Assembly (NCBI GenBank): GCA_036867785.1
Contig: CP145413.1
Coordinates: forward strand, 1,240,001 to 1,304,000
DNA: 64,000 bases
Reading direction: 5' to 3'
From: Plasmodiophora brassicae
Taxonomy: Eukaryota
The notes beneath the pieces are model-generated. The model was not told where the DNA came from and did no database searches. It saw nothing but the letters and a program-made list of their open reading frames with translations. Positions 5,477 through 14,478 of this stretch are shown here, piece by piece. Position 1 is the stretch's first letter. The number at the start of each line of letters is the position of its first letter. The position numbers and the translations under genes were made by a program.

Positions 5477-7033
5477 ATGGCGACCGCTGAGCTGTCGGCC
5501 GAGGAGAAGAAGCGCCTGAAGGAGGAGCGCCGGCGGCAGTTCCTTGCGAGCCGGCCCGACCTGGAGGCGCGGCCCAAACCGAGCAGAGCTGAGCGAAAGA
5601 AGCAACAGCAGCAACAGCAACAGCAGCAGCCGCAGGAACAACAACGGCAAACGCCGAAGCAACACCCTGCAAAGCAGGCCTCGGCACAACAAGACAAAGG
5701 CGGTAAAGCAGAGAGGCAATCCGGGTTGATTGCAACGCCAAAGGCGTCGCCACAATCACGAGCCATCAATGGCCTTCTGAATCATCTGCCAGCGTACACG
5801 AAGCAGTCATCGCAGACGATGGGCATCAAGATGGGTGCTCAAATAAGTATTCATCCCAGCTTCGTTTCGTTAGCGTTAGCGATATCGAAGCACATTCTTG
5901 CAGGTCTCTGATGGTGGTTCTGGGAGAACCTGATTGATCTAATGGTCTGCCGACAGGGTCAAACTCTCGTTCTGCCGGTCTGATCGCCGCGTTGCGCCGA
6001 TTCTTAAACGACTATGAGTGCCCCGGTGGAAGGCCTTTCTCCAGACATTTGGAGCAGCTGCTGACGACGCACATGAAATTCCTGGACAAGATCAGGTCAT
6101 CGATGCTGTTGTCGTTCCGGTGTTTCTATGCTGATTGTCACTGGTCAACAGACCGCTTTCCGTAGGCATGCGCAACGTTGCCGTCACGCTCAAATCGGCT
6201 GTTTCGAAACTGGACCCGTCCCTGCCCAATTCCGAAGCCAAACGGATTCTGTTTGAGATGCTGGACAAGTACACTGAAGAACGCATCGTGTACGCACTGG
6301 CGTCCATTGTTAAGATCGCTGAAGACAAGATTCGTGATGGGGACGTTATCCTGACATTCGGGCGGTCTCACGTTATCGAGGAAATAGTCATCAATGCGCA
6401 CCGCAAAGGCATCAAGTTTCGTGTCATTGTCGCTGATTCAGGACCGCAGTTCGAAGGTCGCCGTGCCGTGCAACGCCTTGTTCGTATGTGCCCTGCGCTT
6501 AATTGTTCCTACGTCCTCATACAGTCCGTTACTTACGTGATGCGCGAGGTGACCAAGGTACGCTTTCAACGCGGGCGTTTCATGGCTGTTTCTAGCTGCT
6601 GACACAATATTAGGTGTTTCTTTCTGCAACGTCGATGTTTGCAAATGGTTCTGTTCTTGGCAGAATCGGAACTGCTGTTGTCGCCGTCATGGCTAGGACG
6701 TATCACGTTCCCTGTATTGTATGCTGCGAGACGCGCAACTTCTCCGAGAAGGTAACCACGCCAATGTACAGTGATGAAGCGCGTCGTGACGTTCGCATTC
6801 AGGCTCAGGTCGATGCGATTACCCAAAACGAGCACCTGGATCCTGATAGTTTGATCATGTCTGCGAACCCCAGCCCGCTGAAGGATCTGCAGCACCTGGC
6901 TAGCCTCAGCGTTCTGAATTTAGCGTACGACGTCACCCCAGCTAATCTAGTAACGATGCTGATCACCGAGGTCGGCTGCATTCCCGCTACTAGCGTCCCT
7001 GCCGTGACTCGCGAGTTCATGAAGAGCATGTAA
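5477..7033 (+). CDS. EIF2B4: Translation initiation factor eIF2B delta subunit
   Basis: Motifs RPLSVGMRN, DGDVILTFGRS, VIVADSGPQFEG, ANGSVLGRIGTA, VCCETRNFSEK and LNLAYDVTP..TEVGCIPATSVP, with a charged N-terminal extension. Confidence 0.92.
5602..5646 (+). repeat. CAG/CAA polyglutamine tract in eIF2B-delta
   Basis: The run gcaacagcagcaacagcaacagcagcag encodes QQQQQQQQQPQEQQ. Confidence 0.8.
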
Positions 7034-7225
7034 TCGTGTTCTTCCTTTCTGCATTCCATACACCTACGCATTTAGACTGTTGGACTCGTATGCATATCAG
7101 AGACTCAAGGGACCCGAGTCGTGTCCACGGAACGCGTTCCAGTAAAGAAACCAGGGAACAGGTTAGGTGCTTGTCGAAGGTGTATTCGTCAGGAATCCAA
7201 ATGTTACAATGGGAAGACATTAGGC

Positions 7226-9686
7226 TCAAGTGTGACCGTCTCTTGCAACTGCCGGGAATGAGGACTCCACGATTCCTAGGTGCAACACGCGGTCGCCCGT
7301 TGAGCAAACGGGGTCGACTGATTTGCCGACCACGATGCCATCCAGAGGCGCTCTGTAGGTTGCTGTAATATCACCGAAAATGTTTCTGATTTGGGCGATA
7401 ACCTGAAGCCCAATCAGTTGAATACCGCAATACATAACGTTGTGGCGTACCTGGCCTTTCTCCACCCAGGTATTGATCTCGGGCGTTACAGTCAACCTGC
7501 ACGTCAACAAATCAGTTTGTACCGTTCCCTCCAGGTATAGTCAGCGACACTGAACATACAGGCCACCTGATCGAATAATTTAGACTGATGATGTGTCAGG
7601 TACATGCAACACTAAACGTACCGTGTTTGGCGAAAATCCAGAAGGACCTGGCGCAGACAGTGGGTTTCGAATCTTCCGAAGGCCCTTCCTGGTCTTCCCT
7701 GATCACCATATGCAACGAGCTAAGAATGTTTTCGACTCCGAGCAGCGCAGCCGTAACGAAACGCCGATGGATTCGCGATGGGTCACCAATCTCAACGGTG
7801 ATGGACGGGATTCCTAGGTTCATTGCCGCGCTTCTCAGGGAGCCCTGGAAGGTGTCAGACGCAAACGGTTAGACACGCAACCATTCCAACATACGTCAGG
7901 TGCCGTATTGTGCACAATAATCTGTGGCTCCTGGAGCAGAGCCATGCTGTGCGTTATCCGGTTGTTCATGTCAGCGCGAACATAGAGTGAGTTAACTCGA
8001 CCGAAGCTCGCCGTATGCAGATCGATATGGTAGTTGAACTTGCAGATGATTGAATTGACAATGTTGTACGCGTATACCTGGCCGCAATTGCCGTTAGGGT
8101 TCCCGGGGAACAAGCGGTTCAGGTCCTGTCCATCATGGAAATTCCTTTGATGCATCAGTAGGCCTGGGCAGTTTAAAACGGGCACCTGAACGGCTAGCTT
8201 TGGCACCGGTATCGGAATACTTAAGATGGGGGCATTCGCTTACCGCTGCAACGGTCCCGTTCAATGTTTCGACATCGAGTTCCCGCAGAAGCCTAAAAAT
8301 AAGGGGGATGCCGTTAAGCTCGTTGCCATGAACGGCAGACGTAATTCCTAAGTTCGCGATTAATGCAGGTGCATACGTTGAATGGCGTAGCGGGATACCG
8401 AGGACGGGGCCTTCGAACGCGCCCTTTGCCACAATGACGGGAACGGTCAGGTTGAAACCAAGCCCGTCTGTTCCAAGTACGATCTTCATGCGGGTAACCG
8501 AGGCCGGCGGTAAAGTCTCAATGTTCAGCGACGTAAAGACGGGAATATCGTCTTCGACGCTGTCAAATTGTTATAAGCAGTGACAAGACTAATTGGACAG
8601 CCGTATGGAGACTTACATTGTCTCGTCCAGCTCCTTTTGGGCAGCCTCGTCTTCTTCCACTGTTGAGATAGGCCCACATTTGACCTACACTGCCTTCAGA
8701 AACCACCATTTGTCAACTGAATATAACTCGCACCATTTCTTCCGCAACAAGCGCTCGAACTTCGTTGACAGCGTTGACGTGGCTTTGCCTCCTAGAAGCA
8801 ACCCTGGCAGACGTCTCTGCCAAAAGATCCCTGTCCAGCGCTTGTAAGGGTACTACAGACAGGAGCAGACATTGCCCTACTTATACTGTGCGGGATCCGT
8901 CTCCCTCCCCCTCATGACCTTATCGTACTTCTTCACAATTTTGTCGAGACCAGAAAAGTTCATTGAGATGAAGTGCTCTAGTCGAATTAATTGCAGCGTG
9001 AAGCCAAGCCTGCATCCCGCAAACGTTAACGTTGGTCAATACGGCATTACAATGGATTCTCACAGTGATTTACGAAGGTCTTGGCTAGACACCTGATTCG
9101 TATCGGTCAAAATCCTCTTTCGGATGCTGGCGGCCTGGTTCGAACAGAACTGGTCGATCTTGTTGAACTCGCGACGGAACAGCTCCTGGAAACACCGTCT
9201 ACGAAAGTCCCCAGTCGCTTCGAATTTCAGCTTAATTTCACTGGCGTGCCGCACTGCCGAATCCCGCCGTTCTTCGGAGTAAGCATCAGCAAGTTCCAGA
9301 TGGGACTAGGCCAGGGACGCTGAGCAGACCTTCAGTGGTTTTCCGCTCTATCTCTGCCTCACTCTCTGATTCGAAATTAGTCACAGATACGCTGCGTTCC
9401 AGCAGCGACTTCGCCTCCAGCAAGACCTGGTTGAGCTTATCCTCCTGATCATGTCCTGCGCTACCGGTCAATAACACGCGGGACACGACTTGTTTCCAGG
9501 TCGAGTTACCAAGCTGTGCGAGCTGATGGATGAGCTGCTTGAACTTCTTGTAATTCAGATAGTAGTCGGCCCACCTGAAGCATGCAAACGATCAGAAACG
9601 CGGAACCGTTCCCGGCGCTCCAGCCCGACTGACTTCGTGTTCCAGGGCAGGTTGGCCTCCAGACGTATCGACTTCCCGAACTTCAT
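7226..9686 (-). CDS. SPX domain fused to succinylglutamate desuccinylase/aspartoacylase (M14 AstE/AspA) family deacylase
   Basis: SPX part: MKFGK..WADYYLNYKKFKQLI and FISMNFSGLDKIVKKYDK. GT-AG introns keep the frame into HGNELNG, DLNRLFPG, HIDLHTA, ITVEIG and a C-terminal APLDGIVVG segment; stop at 7226. Confidence 0.8.
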
Positions 9687-9965
9687 CGTGTTCGGTCGCC
9701 AACGCTCACGCTCGCTCCTTCGATGTCACACGACCGGAACTCGTCGCGCTAGGCCGCCGTCCAGTCAGGTCACTCGCAGTCCGCCAGACTCAGGTTGTCG
9801 GCCTTCGGCGCGGGCGCAGCCGCAACTGGTAATAAGTAGCCTACGTGCCCATCGTCCCGCGGAACACACACAGGCACGCACGCACCTGTCCCAGGCATAT
9901 ACAAATAGTACAACGCTGCACAGAGCAGTCCACCCGTGCACGTACAGTTGCTCGTTTAGTCTGCG

Positions 9966-11163: not shown

Positions 11164-12418
11164 TTACATAGTGGTGCCGAGAGTGAGCTTGCGCAGGGCG
11201 ATATGGAATTTCTTGCGTTGGCCCAGCTTGGTCATACCGAGGGAGACCAGGTCCTGGTCCGTGATATCTTTGATGACATCCAGGCTGTCGACCTCAGCGT
11301 CTTCAAAGTTCTTCGACATGCTCTCAAGACCAGCTTCTTTCAGGAACTCTACAACCTTGGCGAACCCGTCGTTTTTCTTGGGCACGAACGACGTCGACTG
11401 GGCGCTCAGCTGCGACGCGGTAAAGGTCGTTGTCGACTGCGCAAACGCGGTTGTGACTGTGGCCACTGGCCGTGCCCGAGGCGGCCCAGGATGCACGACA
11501 CCAATACGAGCACAGCGGAGGCGCTCTTCAATCTTGTTGATCTCGTCTTCTTCGTCTTCATCGCTATCCCAACCAGAAGAAGAGGCAGGTGGGACTGAGT
11601 CGACGCGACTGCCGTTATCACGGATTGGGTTGGCCTTCTTGGCCGTTGCAATCCCCTCTGCGGCTTGGACGTTCCCAACCGATGATTCGAACGTCGTGCT
11701 CACTATGGGGCCGGGCCGCGTCGGCGGTGGCCTCGATGCGCGAACAACTGCCGGCGTTTGAACCATCGCAGACGTTGACTGATTGGTCTGCGGAAGTTGA
11801 GAATGGCCCCGTTCGGTGGACGATTCGCGCCAACCCTATCAGCAGCTTAGATAGCAGGAAACAAAGGTTGCAGAAGCGTACCTGAGCGGAAGAATTAAAT
11901 CCAGATGAGTTCTTGGCAGTTCCATCATTGTCGGTCGGCCAGCTAGATGCATTAGTGGTAACGGATGACTTCCAGGTCGAATCCGATGTTGCCTGCTTCG
12001 CCGGTGTCGCCTTCGTCGTCCCATTCCAGTCGTTCTTCTCGCCGTCCGGTCTGTGAGACCCCCACACGGCCTCTTTCGGTCCACTGCAACCGTTGTCGTC
12101 CAGAGATCCTCCTCCCCACGATGACTGCGCTTGAGTATGCTTCACGACGTTGTCCCCTTTGGTTGATTGTGGCGCTCCGGCTGATTCTCGCCAATTATTC
12201 GTCGTTGACGATGTCGTTCCACTGCCTCGATTGCCCGAGTCATACGCCGCGCGCGACGACATCGAACCGCCACGTGGGCCGTCCGACGCTCCGACAGGAT
12301 TCACCGTCTTCTTCGTCACCTCGAATCGGCGGTACGTCCCGGCCTCAGGCGCCGTCGCTCCGGGGTCCGGCGTCGCAGGACAGCAACCCGGAGCGCTCTG
12401 CACCGGGCGGCCACTCAT
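11164..12418 (-). CDS. Low-complexity protein with C-terminal SAM domain
   Basis: One intron joins ORFs 11618..12550 and 11164..11766. The C-terminus VVEFLKEAGLESMSKNFEDAEVDSLDVIKDITDQDLVSLGMTKLGQRKKF is a SAM domain. The start codon is uncertain. Confidence 0.75.

Positions 12419-12736: not shown

Positions 12737-14478
<1,742 letters not shown>

Follow-up and report, generated by a model that had tools for sequence, protein, structure and literature searches.

A 64,000-nucleotide (nt) stretch of the Plasmodiophora brassicae genome (assembly GCA_036867785.1, contig CP145413.1, positions 1,240,001 to 1,304,000 of the forward strand; hereafter the window) raises the question of whether an SPX domain can be joined to a zinc deacylase of the AstE/AspA family, and what such a protein would do. 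Known SPX effectors move, store or sense phosphate: VTC, XPR1/PHO1/SYG1, Pho87/90/91, the SPX-MFS carriers, the RING ligase NLA, Pho81, Gde1 and the stand-alone SPX proteins. A first-pass annotation, made from the letters alone, had proposed that window positions 7226-9686 encode a fusion of the two domains, here termed SPX-deacylase. That the fused gene is real is virtually certain. Its product is read here, with modest confidence, as a soluble two-domain enzyme expressed in P. brassicae, in which an SPX receptor is connected through an acidic helical linker to a zinc amidohydrolase.

In this region of eukaryotic DNA, where introns are short, a single minus-strand gene occupies window positions 9686-7226, comprising 14 exons and 13 GT-AG introns (48-63 nt) and specifying a product of 584 amino acids (aa). 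When the splice model derived from RNA joints is rebuilt on window coordinates, its translation is identical, letter for letter, to the database entry "SPX domain-containing protein" of Plasmodiophora brassicae (P0001), which has 584 aa and both Pfam domains. The in-frame splicing of SPX into deacylase that had been read from the letters is thereby reproduced exactly. P0001 was the top match when longer proteins were sought with the 97-aa exon 8185-7895 as query. The ATG at 9686 is the first in-frame ATG downstream of an in-frame stop (9728-9726). The gene is laid out as follows:

7226-9686, minus strand: whole coding region, from the ATG at 9686 to the stop codon at 7228-7226 (RNA joints, identity to P0001)
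9687-9800, minus strand: 5' untranslated leader of at least 108 nt (RNA-like contigs extend to 9794-9800; listing of open reading frames)
8734-9686, minus strand: exons 1-6 (9686-9634, 9574-9510, 9455-9330, 9271-9064, 9009-8881, 8830-8734), SPX domain, aa 1-226 (Pfam SPX, PDB sequence matches, AlphaFold 2 (AF2) model)
9686-9672, minus strand: MKFGK motif
9538-9552, minus strand: YKKFK motif with Y26 and K30 of the phosphate binding cluster
8919-8945, minus strand: DKIVKKYDK motif, aa 173-181, with K174, K177, K178 and K181
8617-8684, minus strand: exon 7, acidic linker helix, aa 227-248 (joints 8682>8732 and 8559>8617)
7622-8559, minus strand: exons 8-11 (8559-8399, 8347-8244, 8185-7895, 7844-7622), AstE/AspA catalytic domain with H309, E312, H394 and E452
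8330-8319, minus strand: HGNE motif with H309 and E312
8125-8108, minus strand: DLNRLF motif
8023-8015, minus strand: DLH motif with H394
7793-7791, minus strand: catalytic E452
7560-7566, minus strand: exon 12, a 7-nt micro-exon (compound RNA joint, identity to P0001)
7226-7496, minus strand: exons 13-14 (7496-7451, 7402-7226), beta-barrel portion at the C-terminal end of the deacylase, closed by the stop codon

Twenty public sequencing runs contain the stretch; 14 of them hold about 0.60-0.65 of the sampled words, approximately the exon fraction, and one holds 0.94. Contigs of three runs from three studies (X1-X3) and of the 0.94 run (X15) were mapped to window 7100-9800. X1-X3 display one compound joint and 12 simple ones that end in CT..AC, or GT..AG as read on the minus strand. 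All 13 are found in each of these three RNA-like runs, and none in the DNA-like X15, in which the introns are read through. Across 8550-8930, where the first-pass annotation had looked to RNA for a check, the joints of the SPX-enzyme region (8829>8880, 8682>8732 and 8559>8617) are spliced in 3/3 RNA-like and 0/1 DNA-like runs. A single X3 contig (3984 nt) crosses every joint, from 7100 to 9794, and spans all exons. SPX and deacylase lie on one transcript, and the separate transcripts that the annotation had allowed for do not appear. Two separate genes were considered as well and are ruled out by the spliced contigs that join all SPX and deacylase exons.

The micro-exon (7566-7560) lies between introns of 55 and 63 nt and is required for the reading frame. 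In all three RNA-like runs, joint 7496>7620 skips 123 nt with 5 other letters between, and the model equals P0001 only when the 7-nt micro-exon is included; the residues that it encodes are kept in relatives. Near it, X1 also contains minor alternative joints (7564>7620 and 7531>7597) at lower depth. A gene model built from sequence alone (13 exons, 602 aa) is contradicted at three places by the RNA joints and P0001: it leaves intron 9456-9509 unspliced, takes a wrong donor/acceptor near 8700 and has a micro-exon of 16 nt instead of 7 nt. Introns 9456-9509 (54 nt) and 8348-8398 (51 nt) are in frame and stop-free, and sequence alone cannot tell them from coding DNA; both are spliced out in the RNA contigs.

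On the full product, the scores of both Pfam domains that had been expected here, SPX and AstE_AspA_cat, exceed their cut-offs. SPX (PF03105) reaches 40.9 bits (cut-off 27.8) in two stretches; on single exons it stays below the cut-off, as expected for pieces, and matches both ends of the N-terminal part. PDB sequence matches of this half are the XPR1 SPX domain (5.3e-8), rice SPX1 (8.2e-6) and also rice SPX2. In the alignment to rice SPX1/SPX2, Y26 and K30 correspond to the N-terminal Tyr/Lys pair, and K174, K177, K178 and K181 to the K-x-x-K-K-x-x-K helix. According to passages of two papers, a phosphate binding cluster (PBC; Y25, K29, K139) and a lysine surface cluster (KSC; K136, K140, K143) are defined in AtSPX1 (bioRxiv paper; PMC9911596; cf. 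Vtc4). The P0001 equivalents are Y26, K30 and K177 for the PBC and K174, K178 and K181 for the KSC. The end motifs that had first pointed to SPX (MKFGK, NYKKFK, DKIVKKYDK) are present, with these Tyr/Lys ligand residues conserved.

Among 23 full-length fused proteins, Y26, K30, K174, K177, K178 and K181 are kept in 23, 23, 22, 22, 22 and 21, respectively. Beyond the Coemansia protein P0098, discussed below, the sole exception is one Lys-to-Arg change. In the labyrinthulid members Pfam SPX is not called, and the six ligand residues are present nonetheless. Between Plasmodiophora and Spongospora, identity amounts to 61% in the SPX half and 88% in the enzyme half. Because the SPX half diverges fast and yet its six ligand residues stay, their retention is selective. 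Used alone as query, this half retrieved only P0001 and the Spongospora protein at E<=0.001 and gave no lead to a donor SPX lineage. In the AF2 model, aa 1-248 are all-helical, with long helices at 104-138, 144-186 and 196-228. The Foldseek list for the full product is filled by matches of the enzyme half.

In the enzyme half, Pfam AstE_AspA_cat (PF24827) covers aa 299-477 with 108.4 bits against a cut-off of 25 (4.4e-31); exon by exon, it is found in three downstream pieces (best 1.6e-13). The PDB sequence matches are 3cdx (1.2e-18) and DoeB 6twm (7.4e-13), together with 3na6 and 6TWL. The alignment to DoeB and 3na6 extends to residue 570-572, and the AF2 model places strands at 496-570. In the Foldseek search, 6twm matches with an E value of 3e-25 and a template-modelling (TM) score, TMt, of 0.82, and 6twm, 3na6 and 3cdx all fall at E about 1e-24 to 1e-25 and TMt 0.79-0.83. 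The motifs announced as HxxE, NRxF, DxH and a catalytic Glu are there, in the form HGNE, DLNRLF, DLH and E452. In the alignments, H309, E312, H394 and E452 stand opposite the equivalent residues of 3cdx, 3na6 and DoeB. As in aspartoacylase and carboxypeptidase, H309, E312 and H394 are presumably the metal ligands and E452 the general base. These four are kept in 31, 32, 32 and 31 of 33 fused proteins, and R351, D358 and R438 in 33/33.

Candidate activities with a name of their own fared less well. The DoeB/EutE equivalog (TIGR02994) is the best NCBIfam model, though it reaches only 69.6 bits against a cut-off of 402.7, and SPX-deacylase is therefore no DoeB equivalog. The AstE equivalog was rejected with 25.3 and 23.2 bits for two NCBIfam models (cut-offs 170 and 305.65), and for aspartoacylase proper no such NCBIfam model is listed for P0001. 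The best explanation of the enzyme half, as judged by sequence and predicted fold, would be a zinc-dependent amidohydrolase of the DoeB/CphZ-like branch of the AstE/AspA family. Both domains are probably functional.

The short acidic linker described by the first-pass annotation is also confirmed: the 35 residues before the enzyme domain contain 11 D+E and 1 K+R, a net charge of -10. AF2 predicts a linker helix (234-248) followed by a low-confidence hinge (249-251). For the full product, the mean predicted local distance difference test (pLDDT) score is 90.9 and the predicted TM score (pTM) 0.64. No membrane part is predicted or seen in the 584-aa protein. Of 33 fused proteins, 27 have a linker with a negative net charge and 6 one with a positive net charge. 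In the Plasmodiophora/labyrinthulid subclade, most members have a linker of net charge -7 to -12, and 6% of background windows lie at -6 or lower.

How widely is the fusion distributed? The search with exon 10 provides the following figures, which refer to the 120 matches listed and, for domains, to precomputed Pfam assignments. Nineteen proteins combine SPX with the deacylase and 6 combine HutD with it; in a further 11, inspection by eye shows an SPX-like N-terminus or helix-4 motif. The SPX form is carried by the phytomyxeans Plasmodiophora and Spongospora, the labyrinthulid Hondaea, Balamuthia mandrillaris and the zygomycete fungi Jimgerdemannia, Podila, Haplosporangium, Calcarisporiella and Entrophospora. 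Further fungal carriers are Smittium, Spiromyces, Martensiomyces, Coemansia and Basidiobolus. An exhaustive representative search yielded 5013 relatives at E<=0.001; among 55 long proteins picked from the 150 listed of these, SPX exceeds its cut-off in 9 and narrowly misses it in 1, and 8 have HutD. No Dikarya, plant or animal names occur among the 120 and 150 matches listed, and this absence may explain why the fusion went unnoticed.

Two quick trees, supported only by the Shimodaira-Hasegawa-like approximate likelihood ratio test (SH-aLRT), address its history. In a tree of 119 rows (one row without the motif left out), all 30 SPX rows fall within one starred clade of 39 rows. The other 9 rows of this clade are plain, 196-410 aa long and mostly on short contigs, and are taken for putative truncated gene calls. 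A second tree of 102 rows (six rows without the motif left out; outgroup from a more distant subfamily, into which one plain row strayed) unites 31 SPX rows in one clade (SH-aLRT 95) and 12 HutD rows in another (100). The two clades are each other's sisters (95) and together make up a eukaryotic clade that lies nested within bacterial rows. The HutD-fused sister enzymes come from chytrids and Amoeboaphelidium (P0035, P0045, P0052, P0071, P0095, P0119, P0134-P0210). By these trees, the fusion had a single origin and has been retained across distant eukaryotes, in at least four supergroups. The pattern fits a single ancient entry of the enzyme into eukaryotes, after which it was fused N-terminally to SPX in one line and to HutD in another. 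In P0241 and P0256, two more distant members of the deacylase family, the partner is Amidohydro_3 (protein of 934 aa) or PF05618, the RimK-associated 'putative ATP-dependent zinc protease' domain (protein of 470 aa).

The horizontal acquisition suggested by the first-pass annotation needs qualifying. The enzyme clade is indeed nested among bacterial rows, but its presence in at least four supergroups means that any transfer was not recent. Since the fusion clade is widespread in eukaryotes and has a HutD sister, any bacterial origin must be old; it is plausible only if placed in the ancestor shared by all members of the eukaryotic clade, the HutD sister clade included. A recent transfer into Plasmodiophora was considered and is ruled out by the 13 introns, the eukaryotic neighbours and the tree.

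A hint at the substrate comes from bacterial relatives. Stand-alone bacterial deacylases are 47-53% identical to the enzyme half of P0001, and 62-67% over exon 10. The best 80 bacterial loci (Myxococcota, Planctomycetota, Cyanobacteria, Bacteroidota and others) were taken, 62 of which have enough flanking sequence. A gene for a protein of about 480 aa lies beside the deacylase gene in 52 of these 62 loci (e.g. L038:5508-6947, L042:5439-6878), a gene for a GshB-like ATP-grasp ligase in 46; both are found in 41 and neither in 5. The GshB-like ligase matches GSH-S_ATP/RimK and scores below the glutathione synthase cut-offs. The 480-aa family matched no Pfam model (15 open reading frames, ORFs) and no NCBIfam model (7/7). 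Its relatives number at least 3693; the 120 listed are unnamed or have bacterial or 'hypothetical protein' labels, and no other source label occurs among them. The family is very conserved, members from different phyla being 53-61% identical. The predicted structure of the 480-aa protein (pLDDT 86.5, pTM 0.91) comes closest to those of a putative glutathionylspermidine synthase (2e-9) and a putative gamma-glutamylcysteine synthetase (5e-9); the TM scores, 0.38-0.52, are modest. An ATP-grasp ligase fold is therefore predicted for it from the model, and a feature search on the family agrees with this assignment.

The bacterial three-gene cluster (480-aa ligase, deacylase, GshB-like ligase) thus appears as a pathway in its own right, so far uncharacterised. 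Because an amidase gene stands here between two genes for amide-forming ligases, the branch is suggested to cleave a small peptide or conjugate made by the ligases. By analogy, SPX-deacylase probably acts on a small amide or on an amino-acid conjugate of peptide-like kind, rather than on N-acetyl-diaminobutyrate in particular.

What, then, could the SPX domain add to such an enzyme? Ligand-dependent control appears somewhat probable from the conserved residues. The SPX domain would bind the inositol pyrophosphates (PP-InsPs) InsP7 or InsP8 and so couple enzyme activity or assembly state to the phosphate status of the cell. Gating by PP-InsPs is proposed because SPX domains control VTC, XPR1/PHO1 and Pho81, and two papers describe catalytic units, either attached or in a partner, that are under the control of SPX (PMC10167327; PMC9911596). 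In the Plasmodiophora/labyrinthulid subclade, the acidic linker may sit on the basic face of SPX, mimicking the ligand, until the ligand displaces it.

Several observations weigh against this interpretation. Four of the six SPX ligand residues are gone from the Coemansia protein P0098, and the enzyme can therefore persist without them. In most fungal members the linker has a charge of only -4 to +2; an acidic linker is not general, and with its weakness or absence there it cannot be the general mechanism. As pTM is only 0.64, how the two domains are placed with respect to each other cannot be read from the model. An effect of SPX on catalysis, in either direction, is argued from sequence and precedent. 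The score far below the DoeB cut-off means that no characterised activity can be transferred, and the substrate proposal draws on the bacterial gene neighbours, whereas homologues of the 480-aa and GshB-like proteins, sought in the window by tblastn, gave nothing better than E 0.25. Finally, X1-X3 bear an RNA label by guess only, and their RNA nature is deduced from the 13 spliced joints.

Other explanations of the same protein have to be set beside ligand-gated control. SPX may serve as a tether or assembly module instead of an allosteric switch, the deacylase being constitutively active; SPX-SPX or SPX-partner contacts would then place the enzyme near the phosphate machinery (e.g. the vacuolar VTC complex) or set its oligomeric state. 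Homotypic SPX-SPX contacts are reported to control VTC (PMC10167327), a pTM this low despite a pLDDT of 90.9 fits loosely coupled domains, and the enzyme half shows the same degree of conservation as the stand-alone bacterial relatives. A pure scaffold, however, has no need of six ligand residues that are kept in 21-23 of 23 members, and a tether is judged unlikely; it also overlaps with gating, since tethering could itself depend on the ligand. Decay of the SPX half into a relic, which would likewise leave a constitutive deacylase, could account for its fast evolution (61% identity between two phytomyxeans), for the labyrinthulid members in which Pfam SPX is not called and for the four residues missing from Coemansia. 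It is improbable given that each ligand residue is found in 21-23 of 23 members, which span four supergroups and include the labyrinthulids, that all 31 clade rows retain the fusion and that the AF2 helical fold is confident.

The roles of the two halves might also be reversed, the deacylase fold acting as a metabolite sensor without turnover whose signal is passed through SPX to other proteins. Nothing specific favours this; it was considered as SPX-only proteins work by binding partners, according to passages of the bioRxiv paper, and the metal ligands and catalytic Glu kept in 31-32 of 33 fused proteins, as in the bacterial relatives, make it very improbable. An annotation or assembly artefact, or a recent bacterial insertion specific to Plasmodiophora, has hardly any credibility left. 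The identity to bacterial proteins over exon 10 (62-67%) would suit it, but in each of three studies the SPX-enzyme junction is spanned by individual spliced contigs, the enzyme half alone holds seven spliceosomal introns and the micro-exon, the neighbours are eIF2B-family, SAM-domain and AAA genes, and the same fusion exists in Spongospora, Balamuthia, a labyrinthulid and many fungi. The RNA joints, the exact gene model and the tree together refute it.

The 12 ORFs scanned around the SPX-deacylase gene in the window carry eIF2B-family, SAM or AAA domains or nothing, and no eutD gene was found among them. Three of these neighbours are:

6135-7033, plus strand: eIF2B-family (IF-2B) gene, convergent with the SPX-deacylase gene
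11167-11835, minus strand: SAM-domain ORF, on the upstream side of the SPX-deacylase gene
12740-14269, minus strand: AAA ATPase with Vps4 C-terminal domain, on the upstream side of the SPX-deacylase gene

The IF-2B and SPX-deacylase genes are bridged by unstranded RNA contigs, and the 3' ends of the two are therefore close together or overlapping. Elsewhere in the window, positions 42001-48000 have a G+C content of 0.68-0.70, compared with 0.50-0.60 in most of it.

In the literature library searched, no paper pairs 'SPX domain' with succinylglutamate desuccinylase, aspartoacylase or AstE_AspA. Where SPX and 'deacylase' co-occur, the connection is unrelated and the deacylase is Bst1; papers on Plasmodiophora and SPX are, by title and abstract, about host plants, and a broader search on the fusion gave no description among the matches listed. 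The first-pass view of an unrecorded pairing is hence borne out for the literature searched, but the fusion is present in public databases and is not peculiar to Plasmodiophora. Its names there are automatic: 'SPX domain-containing protein', 'Ectoine utilization protein EutE' or 'N-alpha-acetyl-L-2,4-diaminobutyric acid deacetylase'.

Within the known SPX scheme, SPX-deacylase is rated here as a partner class that is new, real and conserved. An SPX-amidase conserved in this way would bring nitrogen, amino-acid or small-peptide metabolism under PP-InsP control. Among the carriers are a major crop pathogen (clubroot), zygomycete fungi with arbuscular-mycorrhizal ones among them, labyrinthulids and the amoeba Balamuthia. 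A more speculative and rather doubtful extension is that SPX-deacylase represents an overlooked class of SPX effector, a PP-InsP-gated soluble amidase descended from the bacterial ligase/amidase module, with chytrids wiring the same enzyme to HutD. Phosphate status would then directly set the level of a small amide-linked metabolite, such as a gamma-glutamyl, basic-amino-acid or polyamine conjugate travelling with polyphosphate. As a soluble single chain, the protein would in that case also permit a simpler in vitro read-out of SPX signalling than any other to date.

Vtc4 (SPX and polyphosphate polymerase) and Gde1 (SPX, ankyrin and glycerophosphodiesterase) are presumably the nearest known examples. 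In both, SPX is likewise N-terminal to an enzyme and has the same Tyr/Lys ligand residues. The partner in SPX-deacylase, in contrast, is a soluble zinc amidohydrolase acting on C-N bonds and not a phosphate-handling enzyme or transporter. The DoeB/EutE N-acetyl-L-2,4-diaminobutyrate deacetylase (6TWM/6TWL) has the fold and the metal and catalytic motifs in common with SPX-deacylase, but is only about 20% identical to its enzyme half and lacks an SPX domain. True eutE genes adjoin eutD in proteobacteria, according to PMC8739950, whereas the bacterial sisters of SPX-deacylase adjoin ATP-grasp ligase genes. Bacterial COG3608-type deacylases share all conserved active-site positions with the fused proteins; they are about 320-350 aa long, have no N-terminal extension and are uncharacterised. 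The cyanophycin dipeptide hydrolase CphZ (8EIP/8EIN) shares the family fold (E 1.7e-17, TMt 0.68) and shows that this fold can cleave a dipeptide, although it is more distant from SPX-deacylase than DoeB and has no SPX domain. In the HutD-deacylase fusions, the same enzyme half follows HutD/Ves (PF05962) in place of SPX. This suggests that the same enzyme has been placed under a different sensor.

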